64,000 bases of DNA from positions 32,001 to 96,000 of IMG/VR virus record IMGVR_UViG_3300032138_000647; one strand, written 5' to 3'. Below are positions 2,336 to 33,624 of the stretch, piece after piece. Below the pieces are notes generated by a model. The model worked only from the letters and a program-made list of their open reading frames with translations, did no database searches and had not been told where the DNA came from. Positions within the stretch are counted from its first letter, which is position 1. The number at the start of each line of letters is the position of its first letter. Both the position numbers and the translations under genes were made by a program. Source of the stretch: a virus. Lineage: Duplodnaviria > Caudoviricetes.

Positions 2336-5300
2336 ATGTCTCTAGAATGTCTATGTGTTAGACATGGAAGCGGAAAGGCGCAAGCTTCTGGCGGCGTACT
2401 TAGGGCTAAGCTTAGCTGTGCTCCAGCCTGCGTTATCGCCAAGCCTACCGGTAGAGGGTCTATTAAGGCTCTCATGCGGCGAGAAAGAGGCGGTAGCGCC
2501 AAGCTCACGGCTACCGGCCACATAACTGGTGGCGAAGTTGTGGATGTCGCATTTGAGAACTCAACCGTTAGAGCCTTAAAGCCCCGCCTAGCAGTAGACT
2601 TTTATCTTGGAGGGGCATGGGAGGATAGGAGTGTAGGGGAGGGAGATGACGACAGTTGGATTCCGCCTCAATTTCATGGTCATGGACACACCCATTATGG
2701 TAAGAAGGTAAACCCTGTTGGGGTATTTAGCATAACTCCCGGACTAACTCAGGTTCATAATCCAAGCAAAAGATTTAAAGCTACGGGTAGTCTACGAGCT
2801 AAATACGCAGACAAGTTTGCTGGTAGCTTTAATGACTTTGGCTGCTTCCATAAGCTGTATCCCATAAAAGATATAGACGTATTATATGATGGCGGGTACT
2901 TTGTTAACGAGTCTAACAACAGCGGCAATCTCTATGACAGCGTGGACGAGGGTGTATTTACAGGCTCTTATCATACCCAGTCTGGTATTAGTTATCGCAT
3001 ATCTGACGATCTCAATACTTTTATTCAACCTTCTGCTGTCTATACTACCGGCAGATTCAGATATAAATGTGAAGTTACTAATCCAGCCGTAACCGCCAAG
3101 GATAGTAGATTTTATTTTAGAGCATCTGCTCCTAGGGAAAACTATTCCTCGAAGGTGCCACCAGTATATAAAGTCCAAAATATCAGGCTGGAAGATCCCT
3201 CTGGAAATCTCATTATTAAATATGAGAATATTAGTCTTAGGGGTGACGCAGATTATGATAGCTATCAGTATGTCAACTTTGGAACCTACGGAAGTAAGCC
3301 AGAAACAAACAATCTATTGCTCCATACTTGGCATGCCGACTATCCATTTATGGAAGAAGGTGCGGGGTACACCCTCAGCTTTGAGGTTGATGTCGAGTGC
3401 CTAGACGACCCGTTTGATCGAGGATTTGATCCGGGTTATGAAGACACCTGCGCTCTGTTGGACCCACAAGTTCCACACTCTGGAAATGATTACCTAGCCT
3501 TGGATGGCGCTCCGCTAGCCACTCAGACTCAGCGGCTATCATTCCTAAATCCCACTAATACGATTAGAATATCTGCCATTGAGATATGTAATAGTGGAGG
3601 GTTTGATACTCTGAGAGAGCAGTACATGCCTATTCACTTCGGCGTGCAGGAAACCGGCAGAAGAATGGAGAGGTGTATACTTCCATCATTAATTCCTACG
3701 TATGAGTTTGATGCTGGAGTATACCCCACGTCTAGCAGTGTGTGGTCAGACTCTATTACCGGACTTACGAACCAAAGCGGAGTGGGTGCTGGACATCTAA
3801 CATCACTCATTAGAAACCCATGTAAGAGTAGTGCAATTACTCTTAGTTCTGCTAATCAAGTCGCTGACTCAGGTAAGCTGCTCCTTGAGTTTAGACATCA
3901 GGCCCCCAAGACTGTTAGCGATTTTGCAGGAGGGGCCTTTGATGGCAGCTATCTTCTGAGAGAGTTCAGTGTATCCCATAGGTCAACATATACACCAGAT
4001 GATCATCCGTTTATTGTAGACTCCGTATATCTTAAGGTGTTAGCCAAAAAAGAAGTCGGAAGCAGGGACTATGCTTTAGATATTGTTGGGTGGAGTGACG
4101 ACAGGCTGCTCAATGTTACTTCGGCTGTGGGAGGATTTTTGCAAAATCCGTCTGGAAGCGAAAATAACTTCGCACCTATAAGTAGTGGCTTCAACCCCAC
4201 TAATGAGCTAGCCTTGGGCGGAGAGTCTTTATCTGATAAGAGCCAGTATTATGACGCTAGCGGAACCTGCAATGCTGGCGGCGATCACTACATCCTTTCT
4301 AATACCCCCATGGTCACAGGGACGAGTTTTGGCTGGTACGAAGTACCCCTTACTATATATGATGACTGTGTAACGCTTGGGAAATCTCCAGATTTTTCAC
4401 AAAGCTCCTTCTTTGAAAGGTTGTTCTTAGATATATTCCCGCTGCCTAGCGGGGCTTCTATAGCTGCGGCTGAATTGTGTGTTAAGTACAAGCCAGCTAA
4501 TGGTTTAAACCTAAATACTATTGGCTATGAGAGAATAAGCCGTATTGGAAAGACCAGAGAAGAAGGGAAGATCACTCCAATTGGCAGGCAGACCGCTGAT
4601 GATATCATAAATGCTGGTTCTGGCTTGTCATCTCTATCTGCTATATCAAATATACCACATGGCTTTACGACCCCAGACGACATTAAGTCTAACTACTCCA
4701 GAAGGTGGAGAGGCTTGGAAGGTATTGTTCAAGGCCCCTTCGATCCCGACATGTTTGGCTTTGGCTTTAAAAATCCAACACTAGACTTCCCGCTGCTTTC
4801 TGGTTTCTATGATTTTGATTATGATAACAACCTTATCATCAAGTCTAGACCGCTGGGTAGCGGGTTTGGTTCTGCCACGGGAACCATGACTACTAGCTAT
4901 AGCGAGCACCACTTTAAGAACCTTGGTTGGAGATTTAATAGTAGTGGACTGTTTAATCAGTCTTTGCCAGATCTGACTGGCCCGTATAGAACAACTGACT
5001 GGACTTCACTATCTAAGACTGGATTCAATTTTGAAAGTCATGAGCTACATGGGCAGATTGCTGACGCGTTTAATAATGTAGTTAGGCTATCAGGAGTTAA
5101 TTCTTATATTAACTTTGGTCATATAGATACAGTTAGCGGATTTTCTATCTACACACGATTTACACCGGATGCCAATGTTAGCGGTGTAGGATTTAACTTG
5201 TTTGAGTCTGGAGCACTTGTGTCCAAATGGGACGCCGGAAAGGATCTGGAGTTTGCTCTGGGTTATGAAAACGGATACCTATGTGGTTACGCAACAGACA

Positions 5301-8300
5301 AGGATGACAACCTTGTAAAGGTAAAGGACACAATTACCTATGACAAATATCAATACCCTCTTTCTGCGCTCTTAACATACAATGACAACAACTCTAGCGG
5401 ACTTAAGCTATACACAGATAATGAATTGCATTCTGGTGTGTTCAATACCCTAAGAGCTTCTTCAAGCGAGTTCTATAAAAAGACCGGCGACAGCAATATA
5501 GTTCTAGGATATTCACCCGGCTCAGGTGTCGGGATGAACATGTTTGTAAGCGAATTCGGTATTGGTACATATCACGAGTCAGGCTGTCATATTGTAGAAG
5601 CAGATCCCGATCTGACATTTAAAGAGATACTGGCAGAAAACTTCCTAGCTGGAAATAGAGTTAAATTCTGGGCCTCGGGTGAGCCTAGCAGTAACGATAG
5701 ATATAAGCTATGGAGTTATGTGGATGAAGATACCCTGAAGTGGGACTTGGGAGCATTTAAGGTTTGTGAGTTCAGTCCAGACTTTGACTTCTTTACTGAC
5801 AGGGAAGGTAGGGACTTAATCTCTATCAATATTAAGCATGACGGCTCTGGCTATTTGCAGAGAGTTGACATGCCAATGCCTGAGTCTATTAGTTATAGTG
5901 GTCTTGCCTATCATACCCAAATTGAAAACGACTTCTTAAGATTCAATCTATCAGATGCGTCAGATAACTTCTATACTGCCAACCACCCCAGAATTACTAA
6001 GAGTCTTCCTCAAGGCTATGCATTTGCAGACAGAGCCTTTGTCGTAGAGACAGTTCTTGAACATGAAACCCTGAATAGCATTGCGTGGCCAGACGGCAAG
6101 CTTGGTCCTAAGCTAATTGTTAGTTTGTACACAAAGAATCAGGAGCCAAGCTCTTTCTCCACAACCAATTATGGGCTAATCAATAGAGACATCCATTACC
6201 TCAAGCCGTCTGGTTGCTGGAGAAGAATTGATAGCACGTTTAATTACAACAGTTTCTTTGATGAGTCTGAAGAGTGGGCATTGTTCCCACCAACTAGGCG
6301 TCTGACGGAATTCAATAAGAAGTATTATTCGCAGGACGTGAATGATATGTTCTTGCAGTATGACTTGGTTTATCCTTCTGGTCCAGCATTTGAGTCCAGA
6401 GTAAATGTTCACAGTGCCCACGTAAGACTAGAAGACGCATTTATTGTTCCCACGGAAGTGTCGGGTAATGTAAATCTTACCACTAGTGGTGAGCAGAGAC
6501 CTAGGGAAACTCTTCCTCTGCACTCTATGACTATATGTCATCTGGACAACTTGTCTTCTGGACACAGATTCTGTTCGGGAATCTTGGAAGGTATTTATCC
6601 ATCTGGCCTTACCCTGTACACTCAGGGGCCAACTAGAATAGACTCGCTGTTTGATGGTTCTGGAATGACGCTCTTTACGTCTGGAGCTATTCACCTTCTA
6701 GGTAGCGGTTTCTTCAATCTACTTGCGTCAGGCGGAAGCCTTGGTTCTGCTGGATCATCTGGAACAGGCGGCGTCGGCGGAGAAGACTTCCTAGGAATGA
6801 ACCTTTATGTTTCTGGGCAATATGCACTATCTGCCAGAATGCCGCTGTTTGCATTTAATAACCAGATATCTTTCCGACACGGCTTTGGACCCTTCTATGT
6901 TTATGGTACTGAAAATGGAAACCATTCTGGAGTGAATGGACATTTCTATCCGCTATACACAAACAGGTCCGCAGCGGAATCTGATAGCAGCGATGGTTTG
7001 GCTCACGCGCATACGTTTACGGAATATCCGGGAATAACTTTCTATATGCCCCACAGTGACCAGAACCATGGCATTGATAAGGCCCCATCTTATCTAATAA
7101 ATTATGATGTCTTCCCGAAATATCCAGCACTTAATCTGAACACCCACGCCTCTACCCACACTGGACATTTCAGTCATATTCCGATCTATCTGCATCAGTA
7201 TGCAGAGTCTGTTAGAAGCGATGAAACTAGCAGTCTTAACATGTACACTAAAGCTTTGGGGGCCTTGGCGAGTCGGTATACTGACGGATTCTTCAACTTG
7301 TATACAGGTTCGCCAGCCACGCCATCTGCCAAGATGCCGCTGGTTATCTGGAACGATATAAGTCTTATTCCTAGCCTTGCAAGCGGCAGCTTCAATCTCC
7401 ATACCGCTACATTTGGAGCCGGTCTTGGGGCGGATTATATGACTTGGAATGAGTATAATTATGGACACGATATAACTATTGATGATAATAGCTTTGCCAC
7501 CCTAGAAGCAGATGATGAGATTCGAGGGGTGGACATGGTCTGCTACGGAGCTTGTGACGCTGACGGAAACGAAAAGTGCAATGATCCTCCAGTATTCACC
7601 CACGACGTTGTGTGGCGTCCCGAGTCGTGTGTAACCGGAGGTATCTTCAGACCCTTTGCTACCTATACTAACTTAGATACCAGAGGCTTTAATACCGATG
7701 TTGGGTATAGTGGTCACTTCTACGGAATGAGGAAGTATACAGACCTGAAACCCAACGCTCCATACGCTCTAACTTTGCGTGGATCTACTGGCACAACACG
7801 GAGCATTCCTCTACCAAGAGATTGGGAAGAGTGGGAATATGGATCAGTAGATGATGTAAAGTTCTCTGGCATTAAATTTATTGGTGACTATCCGTATCTT
7901 AGCGGACAAAAACCGATAACACCGCCTTCTGGCAGGATGGAAGGAGATAGGTACGGAAAGGCTATTTCTGTCACTGACGAACTGATGGTAGTTGGCGCAC
8001 CCCTGCATGAGTTTGATGAGCAAGGAGGAAATACATATTTCGACTCGGGAAACAGTCGGCTAGCTTGGGTTGGTGGCAGTGGGCTTACGGAAGCTGGTGC
8101 TGTTTATCTATACCGAAGAGGCCCTCAGCCCCAGTCTCCAAACATGCACCCAAGTGGACACAAAGCTTATTGGAATCTAGAGTCCAAGATTGTTTTGCCG
8201 TCTGCCTATAGAGGCGACTGGTTCCATTGGCTGCCGGGAACTATGTCGTTTGGCGGATTGCCCAAGCTTCCGGTTAGACAATGGGAGATAGGACAAGAGG

Positions 8301-11300
8301 GGAGAAGGCTTGGCCACTCCTTGGATGTCGCGTCTACAATCAAGACACCATCTCTCTATGAAACTAAAAGAGAGATCATAGTTGCTGGAGCACCACGAGG
8401 CTCGTGGTCAAGAGAGTTTGACGACGTTGTTACATCGCCAATTAAGGTGGCCGTCATGGTCTTTAGTGACGAATTTGTTTACAACGAAAGAAAAGCCTCA
8501 ATTATCAAAGCCAAGGTAGACGCCGTAAACATGCTCTACAGATACTACTCCTGTCCGCCAAGGGAGTTGGATTTGCAAGTTTTGGTATATGAACCAACTG
8601 GAGTGGGAGCACCCGGAGGGGGACTAATACAAGGTACACTAGACTGGATACACCACTCTAGAATACCTCGCAATACATATACTCATGGACAGGTGGACAA
8701 CACAGACGAAATAACCAGTGGGATCAAATCGCTATTTCACGAGGCTTTCCCTTATGACGTAACAAAGCCACACAATAACATTCCTCCGATTGTTGGCTTT
8801 TACATTGATGATAGTCGGTCACTTGGTAGAGAGGAGCTTACTCCCGCCATAGATCAATTTGTGGGTCATTACAATCAGTACAGTTTCTTAAGCGGCGTTC
8901 AAGACGTTTATGACGTTCAGGATAGCGGGCATATATATGAGTATATTCCCGCTGTCGATGCTGGAGAAGACTGGGTTAGGATGACCAACACTCTTACTGA
9001 CAGTCTGCTGGATAGCGGTAGGCTTATTAGAGATGATGGTCTTCGATTCATATGTAGTGAACTCGGTCTTGAATGTCAAAACCCAAACCTCAAGGAGTTT
9101 AACTTGCCACCAGCTAGTGGTGGTCGGGTATATATTTTCGAGAAAGAAAGCGGCGTATGGAATCTTATTCAAGAAATCAAGAGACCGGCCCTAGAGTTTT
9201 CAGAAAACGATCCAGATACCGATGCGGCGGCTGGTCTTGACGAAGGTGAAGGTGAATTCCTAAAGCCGGTACTTACCTTTGATGGCTTTGGACATGCCGT
9301 AGCAATTAGCAAAAACACGGAAGTTGTTTCTATTGGCTCTCCTTATGTGGAAGAAGCATGCTTGATTTATCAATACGATCCGGCAGAAAAGAATCGCTTA
9401 TACAGTCACGTTAAGTCTTGGTTAACATTCAAGAATGAAGACAAGCAGTACGATGACGTGCTAGCTAGATGGGAAGAATACGAAAGAACATTTGGAGACA
9501 TGGTTGCCTCTCAAATGATATATACTGAGCTTAGCCCTAGTGAAAAGTTTACTCTTAGGTCTGACCCTGAATATTGGCAAAATGATGTCAACGGATCAAT
9601 TCAGGAGTACAGAAAAATATTCCAGTATGGGTATTCAAACATCCACCATCGTGGCACTTGGCAGTTTATTCCTTCTAATTTTGCTCCTACCTCTAGATTG
9701 GGATGGAGCACGGCTGTTAGTGAGGACGGTGACACCGCCGTGTTTGGAGCACCAACCGACAGCTTCAACGAGTTTGACGACACCAACGTATACTATAAGT
9801 CCCATAACACTTGGTCGTCCTATGTAAACGCAGGCGCTGTTCGTGTGTTTGAGTCAAGAAAATATAATCCCCACTCTGGCGTAGTGGAATTCTATAAGTT
9901 TGGAAACTTGGATGAAAGCACTAGGCCGGTAAGCGCGAGAGCAGAAGACTATAACGACCTCCAGCATACTTTTGGAACAGAGAATATTCCGTTCCATAGA
10001 ACCAAGTTCACTGATGTGGAAATACCAAGAACTGCCGGGTTGGCATTTATCATTTCTCCAGAAATTGATGCGGCTAGTGACGAGGTTATAGAGAACATTA
10101 AGGATTGGCTTGCTCTTGGGGACAGAACTCTTGTTATTGCTGGAAATGATCCTGTCTGGGAGGGCAATGGAAAATACGAGACATCCAACAAGATTATCAA
10201 TAAGATTCTATCCAAGCTAGACTCTAGAATGAGACTACATCCTGCGCGGAACGAATATGAATCACTTCCGTCTTGTATGCCTTCCGGTAGGGCTAACGTT
10301 CTCCCATCCTTCTTCCCCGCAGGCGGTAGAAGTACAGAGGTTACCCCTCAAACTATGTTTGCGAAGGGTGTGGCAGATATTAGGATAGAGCTACCCACTT
10401 GGGGTACAGGATACTCTCCTTGTGATACCCTAAATACTAAGTGTGAACTTCCGTCTATGCATCAGGGAGATCTACGATTTCAGTGGGGAGCCGCTTGTAG
10501 AGTTGGTGGTAAATGTGACAAGATAAGAAGATACCCGGTCAACTGGCCATTCTTCTTTGGGACCATCCCGTGGCCATGCCCAACATGCGACCCCGACCCA
10601 CGCAAACCTCCTATTGGTCCCAATGAAGAACCTAAGCCGTTACTCGTTGCCGCAGAATACATACCGTCTATTACGATTACGTATCCAGCGTGGGACTCAA
10701 CACACACTGAGCCAATCATGTGTCGTCGCTGGATTGATAGGCCAGACATGGTTAGGTATGAGTATAACCCGGATTGCTTTGAGTCTGCTGAATTCACTTG
10801 GTCTGAAAATAGTGATGACTATACATCCGAAGACAGGGCTAGATATATTGACCCAGAAGAGTATGAAGGACGAGACGCCCTGATATATGCTAAGGGTAAA
10901 TCAAAAGATACCGATCCTCCGGTAAGGTCGTATGAAAACGTTTTGCCTGAGACTACACTGGTTAGTTCTGAGGCTTGGTCTGGCAATGCGACATCTAAGG
11001 TTGTTATGATTGCTGCTGTAACACCCGAAGGACATGCAGGCCCCGGAAGGTATAACCTCACCTATAAGGGGGACGACAACACGTCATTCTATCTCAATTT
11101 AACTACTAAGAAATGTGTAGGAAAAATACCAGAAGGCGGAGTAATTGCTCAGCTTGGTGGGTGGACAAAGCGTACAAGCTTCCAAGATGCGTTTATAGGT
11201 TCCCACCTTGGTGAGTGGGAAGGGAATGACTTCTATGGAAACAAGGGCGATGGCGGGCTTGGTCTGTTTAATACTAAGGGGTGGACATTAACAGAGAACT

Positions 11301-14300
11301 ATGTTGTTGAAGAAACTGATCATAACGGCATACATGAGAGCTATAATGTGTGCTGGGTTGCTAATCCTGACGGTTTGCCTAAAGAACAAGACGTGGAAGA
11401 TATCAAGGAGTGGCTAGACAAGGGAGACAAGACTCTAGTTATCACCTATGCTAATGAGCTTTATTGTCAAGAGTCAGACGAAACTGGGTACAAGCCTTGT
11501 AATGAGGGTGAGGGTCAGTACTCTGGAGAAGACACGGGACGTTGGCCCCCTAGTCAGAAATATGCTAGAATAGTAGAAAATCTCTGTGACACATTTGGAA
11601 TAAAGATGAGGCCAGCATATTTGCCCGGAGAGGGGCAGTATGCAGAATACCGTCTTCATACTAACGGGGTGGGGCCAGAACAGGAAAGAGACTCAAACGA
11701 TTTAGCTATTAAGGGTTGCGGCAAGCCTGCCCATAAGGTTAAAAGGCTTTACGTTGATGAGTGGGGTGAACATATTTTGGGTCCAAACTTCATTCCAATT
11801 GACAGAAGTTGTACCAAAACTGGTGAGAACGAGTGGTCAGACTGCGCTGCTAACCGAATGGTTTGGTATCCTTATATGGTCAGAGATATAAGGTGGACGC
11901 CAGCATCTCCATTCTGGCAGATCAAGCCCGGCTTGGCAAGGCTAGAGGTTCCTGCCTTGGCCAACTCTGGCTATCGCTTGTTCTATACCTATGTAACGGA
12001 GCTTCCAGATGAAAAGAATTATCTGAGGGCTTGGACACATCATGTCAGGAGAAGTCCTCATCCAGACCATAAATCAGGAGCCTCTATAAAGCTTTATGAC
12101 TATGATGATAATGACAAGCCAGTGTTAGCTGGCTCTGGTCATCTAACAAAGGATTTGATTAAAACACCAGTAGGTACTCCTGTTACTGTATCTATGAATG
12201 TTAGGGCTGGACACGAAGTAGACAATCTAGAGTTCTATATTGAGGGCACAAACCTGCGTGCTGGAAAGACATCTGAAGTTCCTAATATCCCGAAAACCGT
12301 TAGATTGCTAGCCGTATCAGGAGCGTTGCTACCTGTAAACAAGTTTATACAAAAGCAGGGTTATTGGGAAGATTATGTCTGTGGAGAAAGAGAAGTAACG
12401 GTGCATCATCCTGCGGAAACGTACACAATCCCCGAGAGGATGAGACCTATAATGACAGACAATACTAAATATTGTCGTCCAGTGGGTGGAGCTTGTGCTG
12501 ATTTCGATAAAAAACTTATTGCTGATGGACCAGTTATAGCAGCAGAAGAGCCAGAGCATTTCTCAGTATTTCCGGCAGGACATAAACGATCTAATATTGT
12601 TCTGTTATCCGACACTAGTATGATTCAGGGAGACTGTGGATGGTACAGAGAAACTCCCAGTGACGCTTTTCCCAAGCAACCCAACAGAGACTTTATACTA
12701 AGCCTGTATCCACAAGTTTTCCATAGGGGCTGGATAGGCAATGCTGGAGAAGGGGTTACGGCTGCCGGTGCTGACCTGCGACAAAACTTAGAGGGCGGTA
12801 GAGAGTTCCGCCATATTAAGAAGCTGCTCGCCCCAGACCGAGGAAGTCCGCATAAGTATTGGGCTGCTAGTGGGCTAACGGGGCTGATAGAAAACTTTGA
12901 CAGTTCTCCGGGATTTGGTGGCTCACCAACTCGCGCCCCCTTGTCCTACTTCACTGATGACTTTAATTTAGACCCCAAGGATGTGGATAGACCGCCAGAT
13001 CCCAAAACAGGCGAACAGATTAAAAAGGAGATTGAGAGATTTAGAAATGTTATAATTCCTGCCCACGGCCCGTATAGCAAGTTTAGTGGAGAGATTGACG
13101 GAATACCATTCATAGATCCCGGCCCCGGAGGTGGAGTTGCTCCTAACATGGTTGCGGAAACAACGTATGATATACTGGACTTTGATCGTTTCCCGTCTGG
13201 ATATCCCGGAGATCTGTTCGGTTATGCGGTTAGCCTGTATAGCGGAAAACTAGTTATTGGTGCACCCTACAATGGATTTATTAATGTCTCTGGCGAAAGG
13301 ACCACCTTGTGGGATGATGTTATAAACTCTAACGCTATAAACTCTCCGTCTGGGCTTCGGCTTAGCAATTACGGGGGGGCTGGAGCAGCCTATTACTTCG
13401 AGAGAACTGGCAAGGGTAGTGGAGTTATGGGTGGATATCAGCCATGGGAGTTCTTACAAAAAATCAAGCCAAGCGGTGTTAATGTTGGTCAGGACGCTAC
13501 GGATACCCTAAGCGTAGATGACGGACATGTGCTGGGACACAACTCATATAGCTCAGAAGACGTGACCCATAAGACAAACATCACTGACAGATTTGGTCAA
13601 GCTGTCAGTATTGATTCTGATTTTGTAGCGATTGGGGCACCCGGACATGACTTCGCTACCTACCACGATCATATTTATGATGGTGTTCATCCGCAGAGTG
13701 GAGCATTCTTAAGAAAAGAATTCAATGTCGAATTTGACATTCCTTTACATAAGATTTATGATCTTGGAGAATCTGGACTAAGAAACGATTTCAAGGAGAG
13801 CGGAATCAAATCTGTTCTAAACAACGGAGCGGTATTTACATTTGATCATAGGATTGTGGATTGGCCTAGAAGAATTAAGGAGTGGACATTTGCTGAGAAA
13901 ATTACAGCACAAGGGTATAACTCTAGAAAACAGAAATCCTACGAAGGAGCCGAGCTAACTCCAGTATCTGGAGCAGAAGATGATCACTTTGGAGAGTCTG
14001 TTGCAATACATAGATCCAAGAGGACTGATAGCGATTATACAATGGCTGTTGGTGCTCCCCATCACATGTTTGCGGCGAGTGGTAATCATACAACTTCTCA
14101 GCCTCTCTTGAATGCTGGTGCGGCTTATACATATGACGCAATGCTTAGGAGGCAGTTGCCGTCTAACGCTAGTCCAGATAACTGGATTATGGCAGATCTG
14201 TTTGGAGAAATTAGTAGCATTTCAAAAGATCTAAACCATCTCAAACTACACATTGAGCAAAACGCAACCGGAAGCCCCATAAAGTATGAAACAAGCGGTG

Positions 14301-14824
14301 TGGTTTGGACTAATGTAGATGGAGAAATCTTCCTAGAAGCATCGGGACAAGACCCGGCAACAAAGAGTTTTATTGAACATAGAAGCTATATAGAAGTAGT
14401 GTTTGGAAATCTGCACCATGGAACCCCCGTAAATGACGCTGTAAACCTGTTTACATCTGGTATTGCTGGTCCGTCTAGTGGCAATATGAACCTTGTTATC
14501 ATGGGTCCAGATAGTTCTATAGTGTATAATAGTATGGGGTTATACAGTCCTGCTGTTCTGGGATACGCATCTGGCGTGGAACCGTGGCATTCAGGTCTGT
14601 TCATGTATATGGACTGTCCAGTTCCGATAGGCGTTTCTGGTATACATACTGGCCCTACAGATTCTGGATTGTGCATTTGGACTAGCGGTATAGGTGTAAT
14701 AAATCCATCTGGTTATGCAAACGGAGTAAGGGGCGCATATTACCATATTAGTGACAGCGGGGTCTTTGGGAGCGACGGAAGTATATTCCACAAACCATTC
14801 CCCTTGAGCATAAGAGGAAAATAA
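2336..14824 (+). CDS. Giant (4162 aa) virion/tail-associated protein with a LamG-like domain, seven FG-GAP repeats, a vWA-like insert and two GldG/GATase-like repeats
   Basis: Directly follows the tape measure gene, with a GAGGAG RBS. LamG-like segment SYINFG...FSIYTRF...LVSKWD...FALGY (about 5080-5570). FG-GAP motifs such as DRYGKAIS..VVGAP, DLFGYAVS..VIGAP and DRFGQAVS..AIGAP. Confidence 0.75.
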   Translation: MSLECLCVRHGSGKAQASGGVLRAKLSCAPACVIAKPTGRGSIKALMRRERGGSAKLTATGHITGGEVVDVAFENSTVRALKPRLAVDFYLGGAWEDRSVGEGDDDSWIPPQFHGHGHTHYGKKVNPVGVFSITPGLTQVHNPSKRFKATGSLRAKYADKFAGSFNDFGCFHKLYPIKDIDVLYDGGYFVNESNNSGNLYDSVDEGVFTGSYHTQSGISYRISDDLNTFIQPSAVYTTGRFRYKCEVTNPAVTAKDSRFYFRASAPRENYSSKVPPVYKVQNIRLEDPSGNLIIKYENISLRGDADYDSYQYVNFGTYGSKPETNNLLLHTWHADYPFMEEGAGYTLSFEVDVECLDDPFDRGFDPGYEDTCALLDPQVPHSGNDYLALDGAPLATQTQRLSFLNPTNTIRISAIEICNSGGFDTLREQYMPIHFGVQETGRRMERCILPSLIPTYEFDAGVYPTSSSVWSDSITGLTNQSGVGAGHLTSLIRNPCKSSAITLSSANQVADSGKLLLEFRHQAPKTVSDFAGGAFDGSYLLREFSVSHRSTYTPDDHPFIVDSVYLKVLAKKEVGSRDYALDIVGWSDDRLLNVTSAVGGFLQNPSGSENNFAPISSGFNPTNELALGGESLSDKSQYYDASGTCNAGGDHYILSNTPMVTGTSFGWYEVPLTIYDDCVTLGKSPDFSQSSFFERLFLDIFPLPSGASIAAAELCVKYKPANGLNLNTIGYERISRIGKTREEGKITPIGRQTADDIINAGSGLSSLSAISNIPHGFTTPDDIKSNYSRRWRGLEGIVQGPFDPDMFGFGFKNPTLDFPLLSGFYDFDYDNNLIIKSRPLGSGFGSATGTMTTSYSEHHFKNLGWRFNSSGLFNQSLPDLTGPYRTTDWTSLSKTGFNFESHELHGQIADAFNNVVRLSGVNSYINFGHIDTVSGFSIYTRFTPDANVSGVGFNLFESGALVSKWDAGKDLEFALGYENGYLCGYATDKDDNLVKVKDTITYDKYQYPLSALLTYNDNNSSGLKLYTDNELHSGVFNTLRASSSEFYKKTGDSNIVLGYSPGSGVGMNMFVSEFGIGTYHESGCHIVEADPDLTFKEILAENFLAGNRVKFWASGEPSSNDRYKLWSYVDEDTLKWDLGAFKVCEFSPDFDFFTDREGRDLISINIKHDGSGYLQRVDMPMPESISYSGLAYHTQIENDFLRFNLSDASDNFYTANHPRITKSLPQGYAFADRAFVVETVLEHETLNSIAWPDGKLGPKLIVSLYTKNQEPSSFSTTNYGLINRDIHYLKPSGCWRRIDSTFNYNSFFDESEEWALFPPTRRLTEFNKKYYSQDVNDMFLQYDLVYPSGPAFESRVNVHSAHVRLEDAFIVPTEVSGNVNLTTSGEQRPRETLPLHSMTICHLDNLSSGHRFCSGILEGIYPSGLTLYTQGPTRIDSLFDGSGMTLFTSGAIHLLGSGFFNLLASGGSLGSAGSSGTGGVGGEDFLGMNLYVSGQYALSARMPLFAFNNQISFRHGFGPFYVYGTENGNHSGVNGHFYPLYTNRSAAESDSSDGLAHAHTFTEYPGITFYMPHSDQNHGIDKAPSYLINYDVFPKYPALNLNTHASTHTGHFSHIPIYLHQYAESVRSDETSSLNMYTKALGALASRYTDGFFNLYTGSPATPSAKMPLVIWNDISLIPSLASGSFNLHTATFGAGLGADYMTWNEYNYGHDITIDDNSFATLEADDEIRGVDMVCYGACDADGNEKCNDPPVFTHDVVWRPESCVTGGIFRPFATYTNLDTRGFNTDVGYSGHFYGMRKYTDLKPNAPYALTLRGSTGTTRSIPLPRDWEEWEYGSVDDVKFSGIKFIGDYPYLSGQKPITPPSGRMEGDRYGKAISVTDELMVVGAPLHEFDEQGGNTYFDSGNSRLAWVGGSGLTEAGAVYLYRRGPQPQSPNMHPSGHKAYWNLESKIVLPSAYRGDWFHWLPGTMSFGGLPKLPVRQWEIGQEGRRLGHSLDVASTIKTPSLYETKREIIVAGAPRGSWSREFDDVVTSPIKVAVMVFSDEFVYNERKASIIKAKVDAVNMLYRYYSCPPRELDLQVLVYEPTGVGAPGGGLIQGTLDWIHHSRIPRNTYTHGQVDNTDEITSGIKSLFHEAFPYDVTKPHNNIPPIVGFYIDDSRSLGREELTPAIDQFVGHYNQYSFLSGVQDVYDVQDSGHIYEYIPAVDAGEDWVRMTNTLTDSLLDSGRLIRDDGLRFICSELGLECQNPNLKEFNLPPASGGRVYIFEKESGVWNLIQEIKRPALEFSENDPDTDAAAGLDEGEGEFLKPVLTFDGFGHAVAISKNTEVVSIGSPYVEEACLIYQYDPAEKNRLYSHVKSWLTFKNEDKQYDDVLARWEEYERTFGDMVASQMIYTELSPSEKFTLRSDPEYWQNDVNGSIQEYRKIFQYGYSNIHHRGTWQFIPSNFAPTSRLGWSTAVSEDGDTAVFGAPTDSFNEFDDTNVYYKSHNTWSSYVNAGAVRVFESRKYNPHSGVVEFYKFGNLDESTRPVSARAEDYNDLQHTFGTENIPFHRTKFTDVEIPRTAGLAFIISPEIDAASDEVIENIKDWLALGDRTLVIAGNDPVWEGNGKYETSNKIINKILSKLDSRMRLHPARNEYESLPSCMPSGRANVLPSFFPAGGRSTEVTPQTMFAKGVADIRIELPTWGTGYSPCDTLNTKCELPSMHQGDLRFQWGAACRVGGKCDKIRRYPVNWPFFFGTIPWPCPTCDPDPRKPPIGPNEEPKPLLVAAEYIPSITITYPAWDSTHTEPIMCRRWIDRPDMVRYEYNPDCFESAEFTWSENSDDYTSEDRARYIDPEEYEGRDALIYAKGKSKDTDPPVRSYENVLPETTLVSSEAWSGNATSKVVMIAAVTPEGHAGPGRYNLTYKGDDNTSFYLNLTTKKCVGKIPEGGVIAQLGGWTKRTSFQDAFIGSHLGEWEGNDFYGNKGDGGLGLFNTKGWTLTENYVVEETDHNGIHESYNVCWVANPDGLPKEQDVEDIKEWLDKGDKTLVITYANELYCQESDETGYKPCNEGEGQYSGEDTGRWPPSQKYARIVENLCDTFGIKMRPAYLPGEGQYAEYRLHTNGVGPEQERDSNDLAIKGCGKPAHKVKRLYVDEWGEHILGPNFIPIDRSCTKTGENEWSDCAANRMVWYPYMVRDIRWTPASPFWQIKPGLARLEVPALANSGYRLFYTYVTELPDEKNYLRAWTHHVRRSPHPDHKSGASIKLYDYDDNDKPVLAGSGHLTKDLIKTPVGTPVTVSMNVRAGHEVDNLEFYIEGTNLRAGKTSEVPNIPKTVRLLAVSGALLPVNKFIQKQGYWEDYVCGEREVTVHHPAETYTIPERMRPIMTDNTKYCRPVGGACADFDKKLIADGPVIAAEEPEHFSVFPAGHKRSNIVLLSDTSMIQGDCGWYRETPSDAFPKQPNRDFILSLYPQVFHRGWIGNAGEGVTAAGADLRQNLEGGREFRHIKKLLAPDRGSPHKYWAASGLTGLIENFDSSPGFGGSPTRAPLSYFTDDFNLDPKDVDRPPDPKTGEQIKKEIERFRNVIIPAHGPYSKFSGEIDGIPFIDPGPGGGVAPNMVAETTYDILDFDRFPSGYPGDLFGYAVSLYSGKLVIGAPYNGFINVSGERTTLWDDVINSNAINSPSGLRLSNYGGAGAAYYFERTGKGSGVMGGYQPWEFLQKIKPSGVNVGQDATDTLSVDDGHVLGHNSYSSEDVTHKTNITDRFGQAVSIDSDFVAIGAPGHDFATYHDHIYDGVHPQSGAFLRKEFNVEFDIPLHKIYDLGESGLRNDFKESGIKSVLNNGAVFTFDHRIVDWPRRIKEWTFAEKITAQGYNSRKQKSYEGAELTPVSGAEDDHFGESVAIHRSKRTDSDYTMAVGAPHHMFAASGNHTTSQPLLNAGAAYTYDAMLRRQLPSNASPDNWIMADLFGEISSISKDLNHLKLHIEQNATGSPIKYETSGVVWTNVDGEIFLEASGQDPATKSFIEHRSYIEVVFGNLHHGTPVNDAVNLFTSGIAGPSSGNMNLVIMGPDSSIVYNSMGLYSPAVLGYASGVEPWHSGLFMYMDCPVPIGVSGIHTGPTDSGLCIWTSGIGVINPSGYANGVRGAYYHISDSGVFGSDGSIFHKPFPLSIRGK

Positions 14825-16668
14825 TGCCAATTTCAATTAGATATCTTAATGATACCGCACAAGAATGTGTGCTTAGACCCGCTCCGTTAATTTCTATATC
14901 TCACAGTATAGATAAGACTGGCGGTGGAGATGCCATAGGTAGTACGTATTCTATCACGCTTAACGGAAAAATATTAGAAGACCGTGGGTTTCCTCTTGCT
15001 AGAGACTCTGCCGGTAATCTTTTTGATCAGGTGACTGACTTGGGAGCAGCAATCCCTTGGCCGACTGGACCACTCAAGGGGCCGTATAATACATTTGATA
15101 CCTCTGTTAGCCACTATGACAAGCATAGACCTCTTACTCAGATGATTCCTCTTTATTATAAGCTGGACGCCGTGCTGTATAAGCAAAAGGTGCTGAGATC
15201 TTTGTTCGCCATAGATGGTCAGAGAATGGAAATAACCCCGGTACACGGCAATCAGCCTGAGTTTGTGTGCTATCCAAGAGTTATTTCTATTGATTTCACA
15301 GAGGGTGTGTATATAAACCAATGTGACTACACCATTAGCCTAGAAGCAGACACCCTGCTAGACTATCAGTACAAAGTGGATGACGACGGAAACCCTCGAT
15401 ATCTTGAGCACGACCCAGAACACCCTCACTACAATCCAGATGTTGTTGCTAGGCAGGGTGAAGAGGTAAATCCCGGAAAATACAAGAGACAAAAGACTGA
15501 ACAGATTCTGAATGCAGAAGGAGCTTTTGTTAATAACGTCTCTGAGTCTTGGTCCTTAGAAGCTGACGAGAGCTTGGGGGAAACCAGAGCCAACAACCTT
15601 GGCGGAGAAGTTATTCCTATGAGCTATAGGCTTACGCATAGCATGAGTGCCAATGGCAAGGCTCATTATTTTCCTAAAGACAGTGATCCAGATGACGTGG
15701 TAAAGGTTCCGGCTTGGAAGAACGCCCAATTATATGTACAAAAGAGGCTAATCAAACCCGAGAATAACCTTGGGGATCTTTATCCTAATATTAAAAATCA
15801 GATAGGAAGCGGAACTCTAGATTTAATTAAACAGTATCGTGGATTTAATCACTCAAGAACTGAAGAAGTTGATGTTGCTGGTGGAGGGTATACTGTAACT
15901 GACACTTGGCTTTTGGCTAGCGGGGTGGCTTATGAAAATTATAGCATGTCTATTTCCAGTGACGCCGCTTCACCTTTTGTTTCTGTTTCTATAGATGGTA
16001 GCATTAAGGGGCTGTCCGACACTCCTGCAAGTGGTTATATTTATGGATCAAAGCACCCCAAAAACCCAGCGAAGAAAACCTCTTATCAGAACGCTTTAGT
16101 TAAATACAAAGAGGTTTCAAAAGACGGCAAGTTTGGTGTGGGTTCAGATGTATACAAGAGGGCGAATAACGCCGTCGCGGTAGAGCTAAATTCTCAACCA
16201 AACTCTGTGTCGCTTGGAACCAATGAGTACGATGGAACAATTACCTATAACCTCTCCTTTGATAATAGACCCACCAATATCATTTCTGGAGTTGTATCGG
16301 AGAGTATATCTATTAACGACACCTATCCCGGAGATGTATTTGCTATGGTTCCAGTTATAGGAAGAAAGACTGGGCCTGTTCTACAGTATATTGGTGGTCG
16401 CACAGAATACAAGAGAGATGTTAACATAGAACTGGTTATGGACTATACTGATTTGCCATATGGAAATGACAGAAAATCTCTTATGTTACAAAAGCCCAGC
16501 CTAGTAGAACCAACTAGATCTCAGTTGAAGCTGTTAATCCAAGAGCTTAGTCCCGGCAAGGAGCCGGGTGTGAGGAAGTATTTTATTGCGCCTCCAACTG
16601 AGAGTTGGTCGCCCAAAGAGGGTAGGTATGGTTTTCAGTTGTCATGGACATATGAATTGGATAAGTAA
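14824..16668 (+). CDS. Tail/baseplate-region structural protein (614 aa) with internally repeated beta-rich units
   Basis: TAATG coupling to both neighbours. Repeated Y/VxIxxxGxIxG and GxY/IxYxxSW/F segments. Located in the tail operon. Confidence 0.55.
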   Translation: MPISIRYLNDTAQECVLRPAPLISISHSIDKTGGGDAIGSTYSITLNGKILEDRGFPLARDSAGNLFDQVTDLGAAIPWPTGPLKGPYNTFDTSVSHYDKHRPLTQMIPLYYKLDAVLYKQKVLRSLFAIDGQRMEITPVHGNQPEFVCYPRVISIDFTEGVYINQCDYTISLEADTLLDYQYKVDDDGNPRYLEHDPEHPHYNPDVVARQGEEVNPGKYKRQKTEQILNAEGAFVNNVSESWSLEADESLGETRANNLGGEVIPMSYRLTHSMSANGKAHYFPKDSDPDDVVKVPAWKNAQLYVQKRLIKPENNLGDLYPNIKNQIGSGTLDLIKQYRGFNHSRTEEVDVAGGGYTVTDTWLLASGVAYENYSMSISSDAASPFVSVSIDGSIKGLSDTPASGYIYGSKHPKNPAKKTSYQNALVKYKEVSKDGKFGVGSDVYKRANNAVAVELNSQPNSVSLGTNEYDGTITYNLSFDNRPTNIISGVVSESISINDTYPGDVFAMVPVIGRKTGPVLQYIGGRTEYKRDVNIELVMDYTDLPYGNDRKSLMLQKPSLVEPTRSQLKLLIQELSPGKEPGVRKYFIAPPTESWSPKEGRYGFQLSWTYELDK

Positions 16669-17066
16669 TGGCACAGAAAGAAACTTGGAGATATCAAAAC
16701 GTACCGCTGTTGTCGGGGCAGCGGGTTCTGTACTCTAGCGGCATGATTGTGCCGTCTGGTGAAAGCCACTTCTTTGATTTTCGTCAACAAGGAAAAGATA
16801 TATCTAGCTTGAAAAATGGGGAACCGGCACCCAGTGGTAGTGATGGTTTTCCTTCGGCTAACGTTCCACTATATAGAGGCTGCACGCATCGAGAGCATGG
16901 TTTGATATTACATTTTGGGGAGTCGGGAACCTTTTATACAGAAATGTCACATCTTAAAAAGCCAGTAAGTTCAGGCATTCAGGATTCTCTGTTAGCACCA
17001 GACAAACTAGTTACCCCGTTTAGTGAACAGGGTTCAAGGACTACTCAAGGGATACCGTTGGAATAG
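16668..17066 (+). CDS. Small Ser-Gly-rich hypothetical virion protein (132 aa)
   Basis: TAATG overlap with the upstream gene. Six SG dipeptides in 132 aa. Confidence 0.6.
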   Translation: MAQKETWRYQNVPLLSGQRVLYSSGMIVPSGESHFFDFRQQGKDISSLKNGEPAPSGSDGFPSANVPLYRGCTHREHGLILHFGESGTFYTEMSHLKKPVSSGIQDSLLAPDKLVTPFSEQGSRTTQGIPLE

Positions 17067-17078
17067 AAGGAATAATAC

Positions 17079-19118
17079 ATGCCGTTTGATCCATACATAC
17101 ACTACAAGTACAACTTCAAGGTGGAAACTTTTCCGCCCTCTAGCGAGGACGGTCCAGACGTGTCTGAGAACCGATCTAAAGACGCCGCTTTCCATCTTGA
17201 CTACCCCCTCACGTTTGCTCAGGGGGAGAGTGTTGATAAATATACTAAGGCTGAAAGACCTAACTGTCAGATATATTGCAGGGCTGGCTATATTGCTTCA
17301 GGCTTCTTTTTTCCAGATGCGGGAAGTCACTGCGGCGGCGATTTGGACGCAGTTGAAGATCAGTTCCTTCCTAAACAATCGTGGTTTCGTAGTCGAAAGA
17401 GCACAATTCAAGTCGATGGTAATGTTTACGTCCTTCCGGGTGGAAATGAAGCCCATCGCACAAAGATTACCGCAGTGACCCATCCTCATTTTTTTAACAA
17501 ACCTATACACCCAGTAGCCTCTGGTGCTATAGCGAAAAACAACCGCTGGGTGATGGCTACAAATGAGTTGGGCTTCTTTGAAACCGGGGCTAGGGCGCGG
17601 CAACTGAATCAATATAAATTGCAGCACTACACACAAGTATTCCCCGGAATGCAGTTCTGGTGTTCGGGAGAACAAGACGCGGAAGGTAATGATACTACAG
17701 TAGTGCACTCAGAAAAATGTCCTGACGGATTTGGCAGGCCCGGCGCACCGCCGAAAAAAAAGAAAGGTGCTTTTTCATACGATTGGAATGGGGGAGAGGC
17801 TTGCCTTTCTTGTATAGACGCAGAAGTAAGTGATCCGCTGGGATTTGACAAACAACAACCAAATATTTGTAACTTCGTAAGATTTAGCGGAGTCGGGGTA
17901 ATGATGGACACAGAATACCCACAGGGATCAGGAGCAAAGTCGGCCACACCTCTTGAGATGGTACTGGGAGAGGAGAGAAACCTCCAGTATTCGACAAACG
18001 AACTAAATAGAGATTTGAGCAAGAGGTGCGGAGGAGTTCAGGACTTAAGGAACTGCAACATGGTTGCCTCGATATCTAATGGGGGTGATTATGAACACGA
18101 AAGAGTTGGGATGGGTCACGCTTGGGATGCCGGTAACAAGTATACTGCGAGTGGGCAAACTGATCAAAGGGCAGGAAGACAAGCAGCCCTGTCGTTGGCA
18201 AGTTTTGAGATCCTTAGTCCCGGTGGAACGGCGTATCATACTGGAGATGTTGGCAAGTATGATGGCAAAGCGCTTGTAAAAGTTAGGGCTGTAAAAGAAA
18301 AGCCTCCTTGTGATGATGAACACACCTTGGATAAGGAGCGTATTCATTTTCACATGGAAGATAATTGCGGTGCTAAGCACGTTTATAAGATAAAGCCAGA
18401 CATTGTCGACAACAAGGCTTTAATAGAAGTTCCCCCACAATTGGCTATTACATCTATCACAGATTTCTTCCCCGGAAATAAGCTTTATCCTCATCCTCAC
18501 TCCTCAGCAGGTGCAGGTATGATAGCGCCTAGCACGGGTCCGGTTGATCACGACTGGAGCTTTGTAGATGAAGGTGGAGAACCAAGAGATTTCGGGCCAT
18601 TTACGGACTACGTATATATTCATAATACACACCCAGTTATCCATTGGGATACTGCTATATACGCACCCGACAGGGTAATGATTTATCTTTGGGTGAGAAC
18701 AAGAAAGTCCAAGGGTCAGTACAATTTAGATCTTTCACGATATGGCAACCTATATCCCGACAGCGAGGGTGAGCCTCAGATGGCAGAGTTTGGTATTCCT
18801 GAATTGATATATGCCTCAGACATGTTAGGAGAGGATCGCTCTTACAGCGGTGACGACGATAGGCGGTGGAAGCCGGGCTTTGGTCATCAGGTTGGGAAGT
18901 ACACCGGGAAGAAGGTGCCTGATCCAGCCTACGATTTAGCTGACCCGAACCACTACAGTAGTTATCCCCCGCACACGCCGATGCCTAGGCGGGGAAGCGA
19001 TCATAGATATAAACTTCAAGTCATGGTTGTTGATGGTGCTGGAATACGCGGCTGTCTATCAACCGCTATTTACTTTTCTATTGAGCGCATGAAAGAAGAA
19101 GGGGTTTGGTGGGAGTAA
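17079..19118 (+). CDS. Hypothetical structural-module protein (679 aa)
   Basis: AAGGA RBS before the ATG. Long ORF inside the tail operon. Confidence 0.65.
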   Translation: MPFDPYIHYKYNFKVETFPPSSEDGPDVSENRSKDAAFHLDYPLTFAQGESVDKYTKAERPNCQIYCRAGYIASGFFFPDAGSHCGGDLDAVEDQFLPKQSWFRSRKSTIQVDGNVYVLPGGNEAHRTKITAVTHPHFFNKPIHPVASGAIAKNNRWVMATNELGFFETGARARQLNQYKLQHYTQVFPGMQFWCSGEQDAEGNDTTVVHSEKCPDGFGRPGAPPKKKKGAFSYDWNGGEACLSCIDAEVSDPLGFDKQQPNICNFVRFSGVGVMMDTEYPQGSGAKSATPLEMVLGEERNLQYSTNELNRDLSKRCGGVQDLRNCNMVASISNGGDYEHERVGMGHAWDAGNKYTASGQTDQRAGRQAALSLASFEILSPGGTAYHTGDVGKYDGKALVKVRAVKEKPPCDDEHTLDKERIHFHMEDNCGAKHVYKIKPDIVDNKALIEVPPQLAITSITDFFPGNKLYPHPHSSAGAGMIAPSTGPVDHDWSFVDEGGEPRDFGPFTDYVYIHNTHPVIHWDTAIYAPDRVMIYLWVRTRKSKGQYNLDLSRYGNLYPDSEGEPQMAEFGIPELIYASDMLGEDRSYSGDDDRRWKPGFGHQVGKYTGKKVPDPAYDLADPNHYSSYPPHTPMPRRGSDHRYKLQVMVVDGAGIRGCLSTAIYFSIERMKEEGVWWE

Positions 19119-24556: not shown

Positions 24557-24579
24557 CATAGGAAACTAGGAGAATTGTA

Positions 24580-29926: not shown

Positions 29927-30556
29927 ATGCTATGGTGCAAGGGGCTTTGGTGTAAGCTTGTTTTCCGAGTAATGGAAAGCAAAGCTTATTCTTGGATCAT
30001 GGACAAGATACCTTTTATAAGGTTTTGTCTGTATTATACCTCTACGCATGGTCAAGAATACAAAAGGGGTTATTCTATACTCCGCGCTGGAGACATTATA
30101 CTAACCAGAGACAACTGGAAGCTGACCACCTTTCTAATTCCCGGAGAATTTCCGCATGCCGCCCTCTGCGTGTCCAAGGGTGGCGACTTTGAAGTGGCGG
30201 AAATGACAAGGGTGGGGTTTAGGAAAAGCGAATTCTACGACATATGCCACGAGTCTGACAGGGTGGTCATAATACGTTGCAAGGATTGGGATAAAGATTA
30301 TATAGAGAAGGTGGTGGAGAAATGCCTGTCGTTTGATGGGGCAAACTACGACATTAAGTTTGAGTTGGGGGTTAAGGCTCTATACTGCTCAGAATTAGTA
30401 GTAGCCAGCGATCCAGAAAAAAGACTTATAGTTTCTTATGGAGACTTAATCGGCCTAGGCCGCCCCTATATATCACCTATGGGAATTTACGCTGCTAAAA
30501 ACATAGAGGTGGTGTGGGATTCTAAAGAGTATAAATGTAGTTTAACAGGGAGATAG
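29927..30556 (+). CDS. Permuted papain-like NlpC/P60 (YiiX/YaeF-type) cysteine hydrolase
   Basis: GDIILTR...PHAALCV (His first) and YD...LYCSELV (Cys later) give the permuted catalytic order. Confidence 0.85.
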   Translation: MLWCKGLWCKLVFRVMESKAYSWIMDKIPFIRFCLYYTSTHGQEYKRGYSILRAGDIILTRDNWKLTTFLIPGEFPHAALCVSKGGDFEVAEMTRVGFRKSEFYDICHESDRVVIIRCKDWDKDYIEKVVEKCLSFDGANYDIKFELGVKALYCSELVVASDPEKRLIVSYGDLIGLGRPYISPMGIYAAKNIEVVWDSKEYKCSLTGR

Positions 30557-33204: not shown

Positions 33205-33624
33205 TTACCTATCTAAACTGTATCTCATGGTATAACCTGCGGGTATAAACCCACACTTGACGTAAAAGGGGATTACGTTTTCTGCACAATCTAATATAAC
33301 CTTGTAGCACTCCTTGTCTTCTGCGTGTCCTATGCAAGCCTCAATTAGAGATCTTCCCACACCCTTGATTCTTCGGGAATTGTCTACTACAACATCTTCA
33401 ACGTGCCCTACCCTGCTTCCACAGTGAAGGAACTTGTCTTCTATGAAGATTGTAGCGGTTCCTATCACATCGTCTCCTTCAACAAAAACAAACGTCTTGC
33501 TGGAACCACTTAGGTAAGCCTCCCACATATTATACACATTGTGCGGCTTTACGTCTCCGCTAAGCTGTGAAAGGAGTTCAAAATAGTCACGCTTAAGGTC
33601 CGATTCTTTAATTTCTCGTATCAT
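33205..33624 (-). CDS. Glucosamine-6-phosphate N-acetyltransferase (GNA1-type GNAT)
   Basis: EDKFLH...GHVEDVVVD..RxKGVGRSLI...CYKVILDC...FYVKCGF are GNA1 hallmarks. ATGA-coupled to glmS, start reassigned to 33624. Confidence 0.85.
   Translation of the reverse strand: MIREIKESDLKRDYFELLSQLSGDVKPHNVYNMWEAYLSGSSKTFVFVEGDDVIGTATIFIEDKFLHCGSRVGHVEDVVVDNSRRIKGVGRSLIEACIGHAEDKECYKVILDCAENVIPFYVKCGFIPAGYTMRYSLDR

Follow-up and report, generated by a model that had tools for sequence, protein, structure and literature searches.

A giant open reading frame (ORF) of 4,162 aa, at positions 2336-14824 on the plus strand of a 64,000-nt stretch of DNA (the window) that comprises bases 32001-96000 of the 121.8-kb IMG/VR virus record IMGVR_UViG_3300032138_000647, probably encodes a structural adhesin of the phage tail tip or baseplate, the C-terminal half of which is predicted to be one seven-bladed propeller of FG-GAP_2 repeats that is built from two non-contiguous segments and carries looped-out domains; a probability of about 0.6 is given to this reading. 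The record is rated 73% complete by CheckV, and four related records rated 94-100% complete by CheckV have sizes of 157-176 kb; the phage lineage is uncultured, and its relatives are largely from marine samples. According to the proposed architecture, blades 1-4 (aa 1871-2520) and blades 5-7 (aa 3626-3940) of the propeller module (aa 1871-3940) would form a ring that serves as a rigid scaffold. From this ring a 230-aa Rossmann-like domain would be looped out of the strand 2-3 loop of blade 2 and a segment of about 105 aa would be looped out at blade 3, and between blades 4 and 5 would lie a Russian-doll module of about 1,100 aa, in which a discontinuous GIFT/DUF4350 domain encloses parts of a jelly-roll resembling a carbohydrate-binding module (CBM) and a second alpha/beta domain. 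The canonical topology of a four-stranded blade is such that the 2-3 loops and the 4-1 loops open on the same face. Thus, we infer that the blade-2 insert (a 2-3 loop), the nested module (the 4-1 connection of blades 4 and 5) and a 60-aa loop of blade 6 (2-3) would all project from one face of the propeller, where they could contact glycans of the host surface.

The seven repeats are read directly from the protein. In it, a regular expression that describes the FG...GAP core has exactly seven matches (nt 7952, 8309, 9287, 9698, 13217, 13592 and 13988), compared to a mean of 0.044 matches and a maximum of 1 in 500 shuffles of the protein; an earlier reading made from the letters alone (the sequence-only reading) had already counted seven repeats over about 2060 aa, and its starts lie within 9 nt of these matches, which span aa 1871-3935, or about 2,065 aa. 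The Pfam model FG-GAP_2 (PF14312) scores 87.3 bits on the whole giant protein (E 7.5e-25, cut-off 23), is found at five separate places in a six-frame scan, and matches six of the seven repeats when they are scanned as single pieces (E 4e-7 to 7e-3). A hidden Markov model (HMM) built on the blades of this family recognizes seven units in the giant protein and no eighth. In 32 full-length homologues, the G...G[AS]P cores of all seven blades show no variation or almost none, and the same holds for G1993, P2020 and the subsequent SGGRVYIFEKE strand of repeat 2. All blades are on the plus strand. Blade 1 is located at 7946-8185 (aa 1871-1950; FG-GAP_2 E 3.7e-5). Blade 2 is interrupted, with strands 1-2 at 8303-8401 (aa 1990-2022, LGHSLDVAS ... 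IIVAGAP) and strands 3-4, a predicted and highly conserved beta hairpin that follows the insert, at 9122-9184 (aa 2263-2283, GRVYIFEKE / VWNLIQEI). The core of blade 3 (9281-9370, aa 2316-2345; E 7e-3 on the piece) is followed by the insert of about 105 aa (9371-9685), which is helical by eye and is located inside or after blade 3, between conserved blade cores. Blade 4 (9692-9895, aa 2453-2520) matches with E 6e-3 on the piece and 8.5e-4 in the genome scan. Beyond the nested module are blade 5 (13211-13465, aa 3626-3710; E 1.2e-4), blade 6 (13586-13885, aa 3751-3850; E 1.3e-6), whose loop of about 60 aa is between strands 2 and 3, and blade 7 (13982-14155, aa 3883-3940; E 4e-7).

Closure of the seven repeats into one propeller, as the sequence-only reading had supposed, is borne out by prediction. 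The two parts of the propeller were modelled as two chains, blades 1-4 (aa 1860-2520) and blades 5-7 (aa 3612-3950), with an alignment of 26 rows for each, and the interaction prediction score from aligned errors (ipSAE) was 0.74, 0.75 and 0.75 in three runs, versus 0.00 for the best of three controls; the mark applied to this score was reached in the benchmark by 58 of 80 solved complexes and by 2 of 110 mismatched pairs. The three runs share at least 60% of their contacts. Confident contacts fall into two sets, one between blade 4 (aa 2457-2506) and blade 5 (aa 3626-3704) and the other between blade 1 (aa 1867-1946) and blade 7 (aa 3887-3934), and two separate sets of contacts (4/5 and 7/1) are the pattern needed by a closed seven-membered ring. 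The seven dispersed blades are therefore predicted to close into one propeller from two segments about 1,100 residues apart. Because the prediction used two separate chains, it is compatible with closure inside one chain and with a domain-swapped ring, and an alternative is that there is no single intramolecular ring, either because the propeller is domain-swapped between neighbouring chains of an oligomer or because the blades form separate open beta-sheets. Tail-tip and fibre proteins of phages are usually trimers, and the 1,100-residue linker permits either arrangement. Nevertheless, members of the family share the count of seven blades, their 4+3 split and the lengths of the inserts, the predicted error is low at both of the interfaces that close the ring, and the two ends of the nested insert appear to be parts of one discontinuous domain (described below), which would place the start of blade 5 near the end of blade 4 in the same chain. 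We consider it improbable that the single-chain ring is absent.

The family in which this pattern is conserved is large. A search restricted to the propeller region found 330 homologous proteins at E <= 0.001; among the 120 homologues listed, lengths are 2,500-5,400 aa, sequences are 35-60% identical, and most fully cover aa 1860-3960. The viral contigs that carry these homologues reach about 180 kb, and several are from Tara Oceans samples. The giant protein is conserved over its whole length, inserts included; the blade-2 insert is present in 89 clusters at 50% identity, and at 90% identity the family forms more than 330 clusters, so that the architecture, if the predictions hold, would be a widespread one.

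The nested insert between blades 4 and 5 (9896-13195, plus strand, about 1,100 aa, aa 2521-3620) is present in all homologues, and an AlphaFold2 model of aa 2505-3625 together with fold matches indicates several domains within it, all on the plus strand. Model residues ~8-200 (9869-10447) are the N-terminal part of an outer domain that resembles GIFT and class-I-glutamine-amidotransferase-like domains (DUF4350), and model residues ~885-960 (12500-12727, ...IVLLSDTSMIQGD...) are its C-terminal part. Between these parts, the secondary structure of the model indicates a beta-rich segment (model residues ~210-390, 10475-11017) that is part of a CBM-like jelly-roll match, and an inner alpha/beta domain (model residues ~410-600, 11075-11647) that appears to be a second DUF4350-like module; these are followed by a beta-sandwich jelly-roll that resembles CBMs and Eph ligand-binding domains (model residues ~655-870, 11810-12457). 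Structural alignments with GIFT and class-I-glutamine-amidotransferase (GATase1)-like domains extend from model residue ~10 to ~958 with only about 200 residues aligned; thus, the outer domain is predicted to be discontinuous (~8-200 plus 885-960). The jelly-roll matches span model residues 312-830, and the structural matches bracket the second alpha/beta module at ~410-600. The inner module also has a faint sequence match to IFT52 (E 0.77, profile positions 462-579), and its motif CWVANP...IKEWLDKGDKTLVITY resembles a motif of the first DUF4350-like module. DUF4350 (PF14258) was found in 15 of 26 relatives at E <= 0.01 (best 3e-8) and ABC_transp_aux in 4 of 26; on the copy in the window, DUF4350 gives E 0.006 and a score of 17.3 bits, which falls short of the cut-off of 30.4 bits. 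A cysteine-rich stretch is also found in this insert (window 10421-10700, aa ~2696-2790), in which C2696 and C2703 are invariant, C2721 is near-invariant, and a proline-rich segment follows; it could be a knot stabilized by disulfides or metal.

The outer domain matches solved members of the GIFT and class-I-glutamine-amidotransferase-like fold, of which the best is the non-enzymatic GIFT domain of IFT52. At the putative nucleophile elbow, placed by alignment, the conserved segment LV(I/L)xGNDPxWE reads G-N-D-P, with no cysteine, and so the domain is taken to be non-catalytic, like GIFT domains. These observations bear on the alternative that the giant protein is not an adhesin but a glycan-processing or otherwise enzymatic protein, either part of the tail or ejected, whose domains catalyze reactions on the host envelope. 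The structural neighbours of the outer domain do include parts of glycoside hydrolases (GH42, GH164) and amidotransferases, CBM-like modules commonly accompany enzymes, and the phage encodes a large block of glycan-synthesis genes as well as a nearby C92 amidase; but searches of all 4,162 residues with Pfam, NCBIfam, PHROGs and PDB profiles revealed no catalytic family, the putative elbow is without a cysteine, and the best structural match is to a non-enzymatic domain. An enzymatic role is accordingly judged unlikely. The sequence-only reading had proposed that the propeller is a hub displaying adhesion domains on the virion: the fold matches of the nested insert to GIFT/DUF4350 domains and to CBM-like jelly-rolls agree with the hub, whereas display on the virion is suggested by gene order alone.

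That gene order is conserved. The giant gene begins 13 nt after the end (2323) of a 2,634-aa ORF that starts upstream of the window and has its C-terminal part at positions 2-2323 on the plus strand; the N-terminal part of this ORF matches PhageMin_Tail (PF10145, E 7.2e-27), which identifies it as the tape measure protein. Directly 3' of the giant gene and co-oriented with it (14824-29097, plus strand) are four large ORFs of 614, 679, 1,816 and 1,505 aa, none of which has a match in Pfam, PHROGs or NCBIfam. In all 29 of the related viral loci, the giant gene is followed by genes homologous to those of 614 aa and 1,816 aa, and a homologue of the tape-measure C-terminus is directly upstream of it in 24 of the 29, which is every locus with sequence extending that far. 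Because the order of the tape measure gene, the giant gene and the 614-aa and 1,816-aa genes is kept, the giant gene belongs to a conserved tail module, and its position after the tape measure gene suggests that its product is located at the tail tip or baseplate of the virion.

Several results weigh against the proposed architecture and role. Repeat 2 (nt 8270-8470) has no Pfam match when scanned alone, and it is the weakest repeat in the leave-one-out test with the HMM of the family's own blades (independent E-value 0.3). The partner chain in the complex model has a predicted local distance difference test score (pLDDT) of only 52-56, and the ipSAE result may stem from likeness to, or memory of, solved integrin (FG-GAP) propellers. 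For the nested insert, the model has a pLDDT of 70.7 and a predicted template modelling score (pTM) of 0.43, which makes its domains believable and leaves their packing and exact borders uncertain. There is no PHROG, NCBIfam, PDB-sequence or INPHARED match to any characterized tail protein: tblastn with aa 1860-4162 gave no match among INPHARED phages, NCBIfam gave none for the giant protein and the four other large proteins, and a profile of 32 full-length homologues gave none among PDB sequences at E <= 1. All of the structural claims, finally, depend on prediction.

The second question raised by the sequence-only reading concerns the domain inside blade 2, which it had placed at 8440-9010 and described as resembling a von Willebrand factor A (vWA) domain with a degenerate metal-ion-dependent adhesion site (MIDAS), inserted as in integrins in the region of blades 2 and 3. 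The strands and helices that it read are present in an AlphaFold2 model made with 26 aligned relatives (pLDDT 82.8, pTM 0.77), but the insert is larger (nt 8432-9121, plus strand, aa 2033-2262) and is located inside blade 2, between the GAP strand (IIVAGAP, strand 2) and the GGRVYIFEKE strand (strand 3). The order in the model is beta-alpha-beta-beta-alpha-beta-alpha-beta-alpha, followed by the two strands of the blade: a strand (IKVAVMVF), a helix, a strand (LDLQVLVYE), another strand, a helix from DEITSGIK, a strand (IVGFYI), a helix, a strand and a helix. The predicted fold is thus of the Rossmann-like class, a three-layer alpha/beta/alpha sandwich of alternating beta-alpha units in which helices flank a central sheet. 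Structural searches with the model likewise gave Rossmann-like matches, and the domain was found in this family alone.

This order of strands and helices fits a vWA domain, as the sequence-only reading had it, and the possibility that the giant protein is a true integrin-like device, with an insert that is a very divergent and possibly strand-swapped vWA or I-domain binding a host ligand through a MIDAS-type cation site, has some points in its favour. All 26 members compared have a [DE]x[ST]xS loop (DDSRS in the giant protein, aa 2158-2162) between a hydrophobic strand and a helix, 24 of the 26 have an aspartate after strand 1 (aa 2045), and an SG at a helix N-terminus is nearly invariant. By language-model features, the nearest ESM-Atlas clusters are VWA families, at 0.76-0.78, which is in the range of a lead only. 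Foldseek with the model of the insert gave weak generic matches with template modelling (TM) scores of at most 0.31, among them chains of collagen VI and integrin alphaX (E 1e-2, TM 0.24-0.27).

Searches that would recognize a vWA domain by sequence point the other way. The Pfam VWA models match 0 of 26 members of the insert family even at E 10; a profile of the insert against PDB sequences gave only chance-level matches and no vWA domain; and the same profile against 1.84 billion representative proteins gave 89 matches, none of them a vWA protein, which by length and position are apparently members of the same giant family or fragments of them. A six-frame search with VWA_2 found nothing in five phage genomes (the genome of the window and four relatives), compared to 12 of 14 control genomes. 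Profile comparison by hhalign with four vWA domains, which are paralogues from E. coli K-12 (a search for YegL homologues gave only near-identical E. coli proteins), returned a probability of 0.5%, whereas vWA domains left out one at a time as controls returned 39-94%; its sole pairing with the real vWA domains was between the [DE]x[ST]xS loop and the MIDAS loop, over 11 columns (P 0.11). A circularly permuted profile of the insert aligned to vWA no better and did not extend this match. The loop itself, set between a hydrophobic strand and a helix, has the local form of a MIDAS loop, but it is misplaced, following strand 4 instead of strand 1; after strand 1, the canonical MIDAS position, the family reads [ST]-D-x-F-x-Y. 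No vWA chain is found in the top 50 rows of either wide structural search (VIA), which is no proof that the folds differ. Of what the sequence-only reading said about the insert, then, the alpha/beta/alpha fold and the order of its elements hold, and its vWA identity is not supported; that it is a vWA domain in disguise is quite unlikely, and the Rossmann-like domain of the proposed architecture resembles the integrin I-domain in concept only, as an alpha/beta domain grafted near blade 2 of a propeller.

Other routes to the identity of the insert gave little. Nothing in the BFVD library of viral structures matches the model at E <= 1e-3. A match to PDB 3RAG (uncharacterized protein Aaci_0196 of Alicyclobacillus acidocaldarius) has 11% identity; because 3RAG itself is without known function or family, it adds no functional information, and a literature search on 3RAG/Aaci_0196 found nothing relevant. 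A paralogous relationship of the insert to the DUF4350-like modules was rejected: hhalign of the insert against the nested insert, the N-terminal 1,860 aa and the C-terminus gave probabilities of at most 0.4%.

Strands 1 and 4 are adjacent at the crossover of a sheet of order 3-2-1-4-5, and so the conserved aspartate and the [DE]x[ST]xS loop could form one putative site. It is conceivable, though unlikely, that this is a metal site of the MIDAS type which holds an acidic ligand of the host while the GIFT/CBM module on the same face of the propeller binds glycans, which would make the giant protein an independently built, integrin-like, cation-dependent adhesion device. If so, it would have a two-site head for receptor binding, for which no virus is described to offer a parallel.

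Variation in the family is found at the N-terminus. Five relatives of 4,800-5,400 aa have extra Calx-beta, RCC1-like, Laminin_G_3 and Ig-like domains, and in four loci examined the extra length is located after aa 19-86 of the protein in the window. A role of the propeller loops as a hotspot where new domains are acquired was rejected, as the extra domains of the longer homologues are near the N-terminus; in these four loci, it is the N-terminal end that varies and not the propeller. The N-terminal half looks lectin-rich, on the strength of an ESM-Atlas lead (0.87-0.90) to ConA/LamG-like clusters and viral hypothetical proteins. Short repeats with the pattern [MFL]-[NT]-L-[YF]-[TV]-x-G (LTLYTQG, MTLFTSG, MNLYVSG, FNLYTGS, VNLFTSG, MNLVIMG; 6 strict matches, compared to 0.2 expected in shuffles) are located both before the propeller, in a Ser/Gly-rich segment at window 6608-7310 (aa 1425-1659), and after it, at 14441-14480 (aa 4036-4057). 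An array of repeats may enclose the propeller module as a whole.

Other genes of the locus were surveyed as well. PHROGs were searched with the giant protein, the four other large and two smaller proteins of the tail block, and ten upstream ORFs, which gave zero matches for the tail-block proteins and one weak tail-fibre match among the upstream ORFs. Upstream of the tape measure gene are two further giant ORFs of 1,826 and 1,831 aa (bases 4952-10432 and 14769-20264 of genome L035), the first of which has no Pfam match, and a 322-aa ORF that neighbours them has a weak tail-fibre PHROG match (E 4e-5). Downstream, the four large ORFs are followed by a 254-aa ORF and then by a homologue of Peptidase_C92 (29927-30556, plus strand, E 1.4e-13), a permuted papain-like amidase of the YaeF/YiiX type, which is the last ORF of the plus-strand tail block and may be a tail-associated cell-wall amidase. 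A block on the minus strand encodes a protein with a GlmS-like (glutamine-amidotransferase-like) N-terminus (33621-35216), a member of phrog_15577 with unknown function (53707-55227) and a glycosyltransferase (56350-58035); a search of contigs with the GlmS-like gene recovered no bacterial locus.

If the proposed architecture is correct, a propeller tolerates a multiply nested insertion of 1,100 residues between two of its blades and closes nonetheless. Such a propeller would stand as an extreme example of domain insertion and as a new way of building the host-recognition organs of phages. The domains of its inserts offer a concrete target for the study of host recognition by an abundant group of uncultured marine phages. 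The analysis also separates what is truly integrin-like, namely the FG-GAP scaffold and the principle of grafting, from the vWA I-domain, and so guards against over-annotation of such proteins as "integrin/vWA-like". A literature search for FG-GAP propellers in the tails of phages brought up nothing relevant.

A close comparison is with the integrin alpha chains that contain an alphaI domain (alphaM, alphaX, alphaL; e.g., PDB 4NEH). Like them, the giant protein has seven blades of FG-GAP type in what is predicted to be one propeller, an alpha/beta/alpha domain of about 200 aa grafted in the region of blade 2, in a loop that by canonical topology is on the same face as the integrin insertion, and a propeller that would act as the platform for a binding domain. 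The differences are numerous. The phage protein is linked to integrins only by the Pfam FG-GAP_2 repeat: profiles of the propeller halves against PDB sequences gave integrin alpha6 and alphaIIb at E 0.3-0.6, which is not significant, or nothing. It lacks calcium loops, the integrin-type motif D-x-[DN]-x-[DN]-G-x-x-D having zero matches in the whole giant protein, and no integrin leg domains were detected, FG-GAP_2 being the only family that Pfam reports in it. Its blade-2 insert, which is not demonstrably a vWA domain, is in the strand 2-3 loop within the blade, whereas the I-domain of integrins is between blades 2 and 3. Its propeller is split 4+3 by the second, nested insert of 1,100 aa, and its gene is located in a phage tail module.

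The nested module, in turn, can be compared with the GIFT/GATase1-like domains of IFT52 (5FMS), GldG/ABC_transp_aux, DUF4350, ThuA-like proteins and OST48, from which the phage copy differs in being split by about 680 residues and in being located inside a propeller loop. The principle of insertion itself has a parallel in the evolved Dit and Tal proteins of lactococcal and Lactobacillus siphophages, which have carbohydrate-binding modules inserted in their loops: in both cases the scaffold belongs to the tail tip (by gene position, for the giant protein), is encoded beside the tape measure gene and has CBM-like modules inserted in loops. The scaffold of evolved Dit and Tal is not of the FG-GAP type, however, and they have a single level of nesting and are about ten times smaller.

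Propellers are already known in receptor-binding proteins (RBPs) and related proteins of phages, namely the C-terminal seven-bladed propeller of phiKZ gp131 (PDB 4GBF), the function of which is itself unproven, the five-bladed propeller of the phi11 RBP, and that of PRD1 P2 (PMC4901313). The giant protein shares with them a propeller in a protein of the tail or baseplate for which contact with the host surface is proposed. Those propellers, as described, are contiguous and without large inserted or nested domains; what differs here is the predicted ring split into two segments, with domains nested inside its loops.

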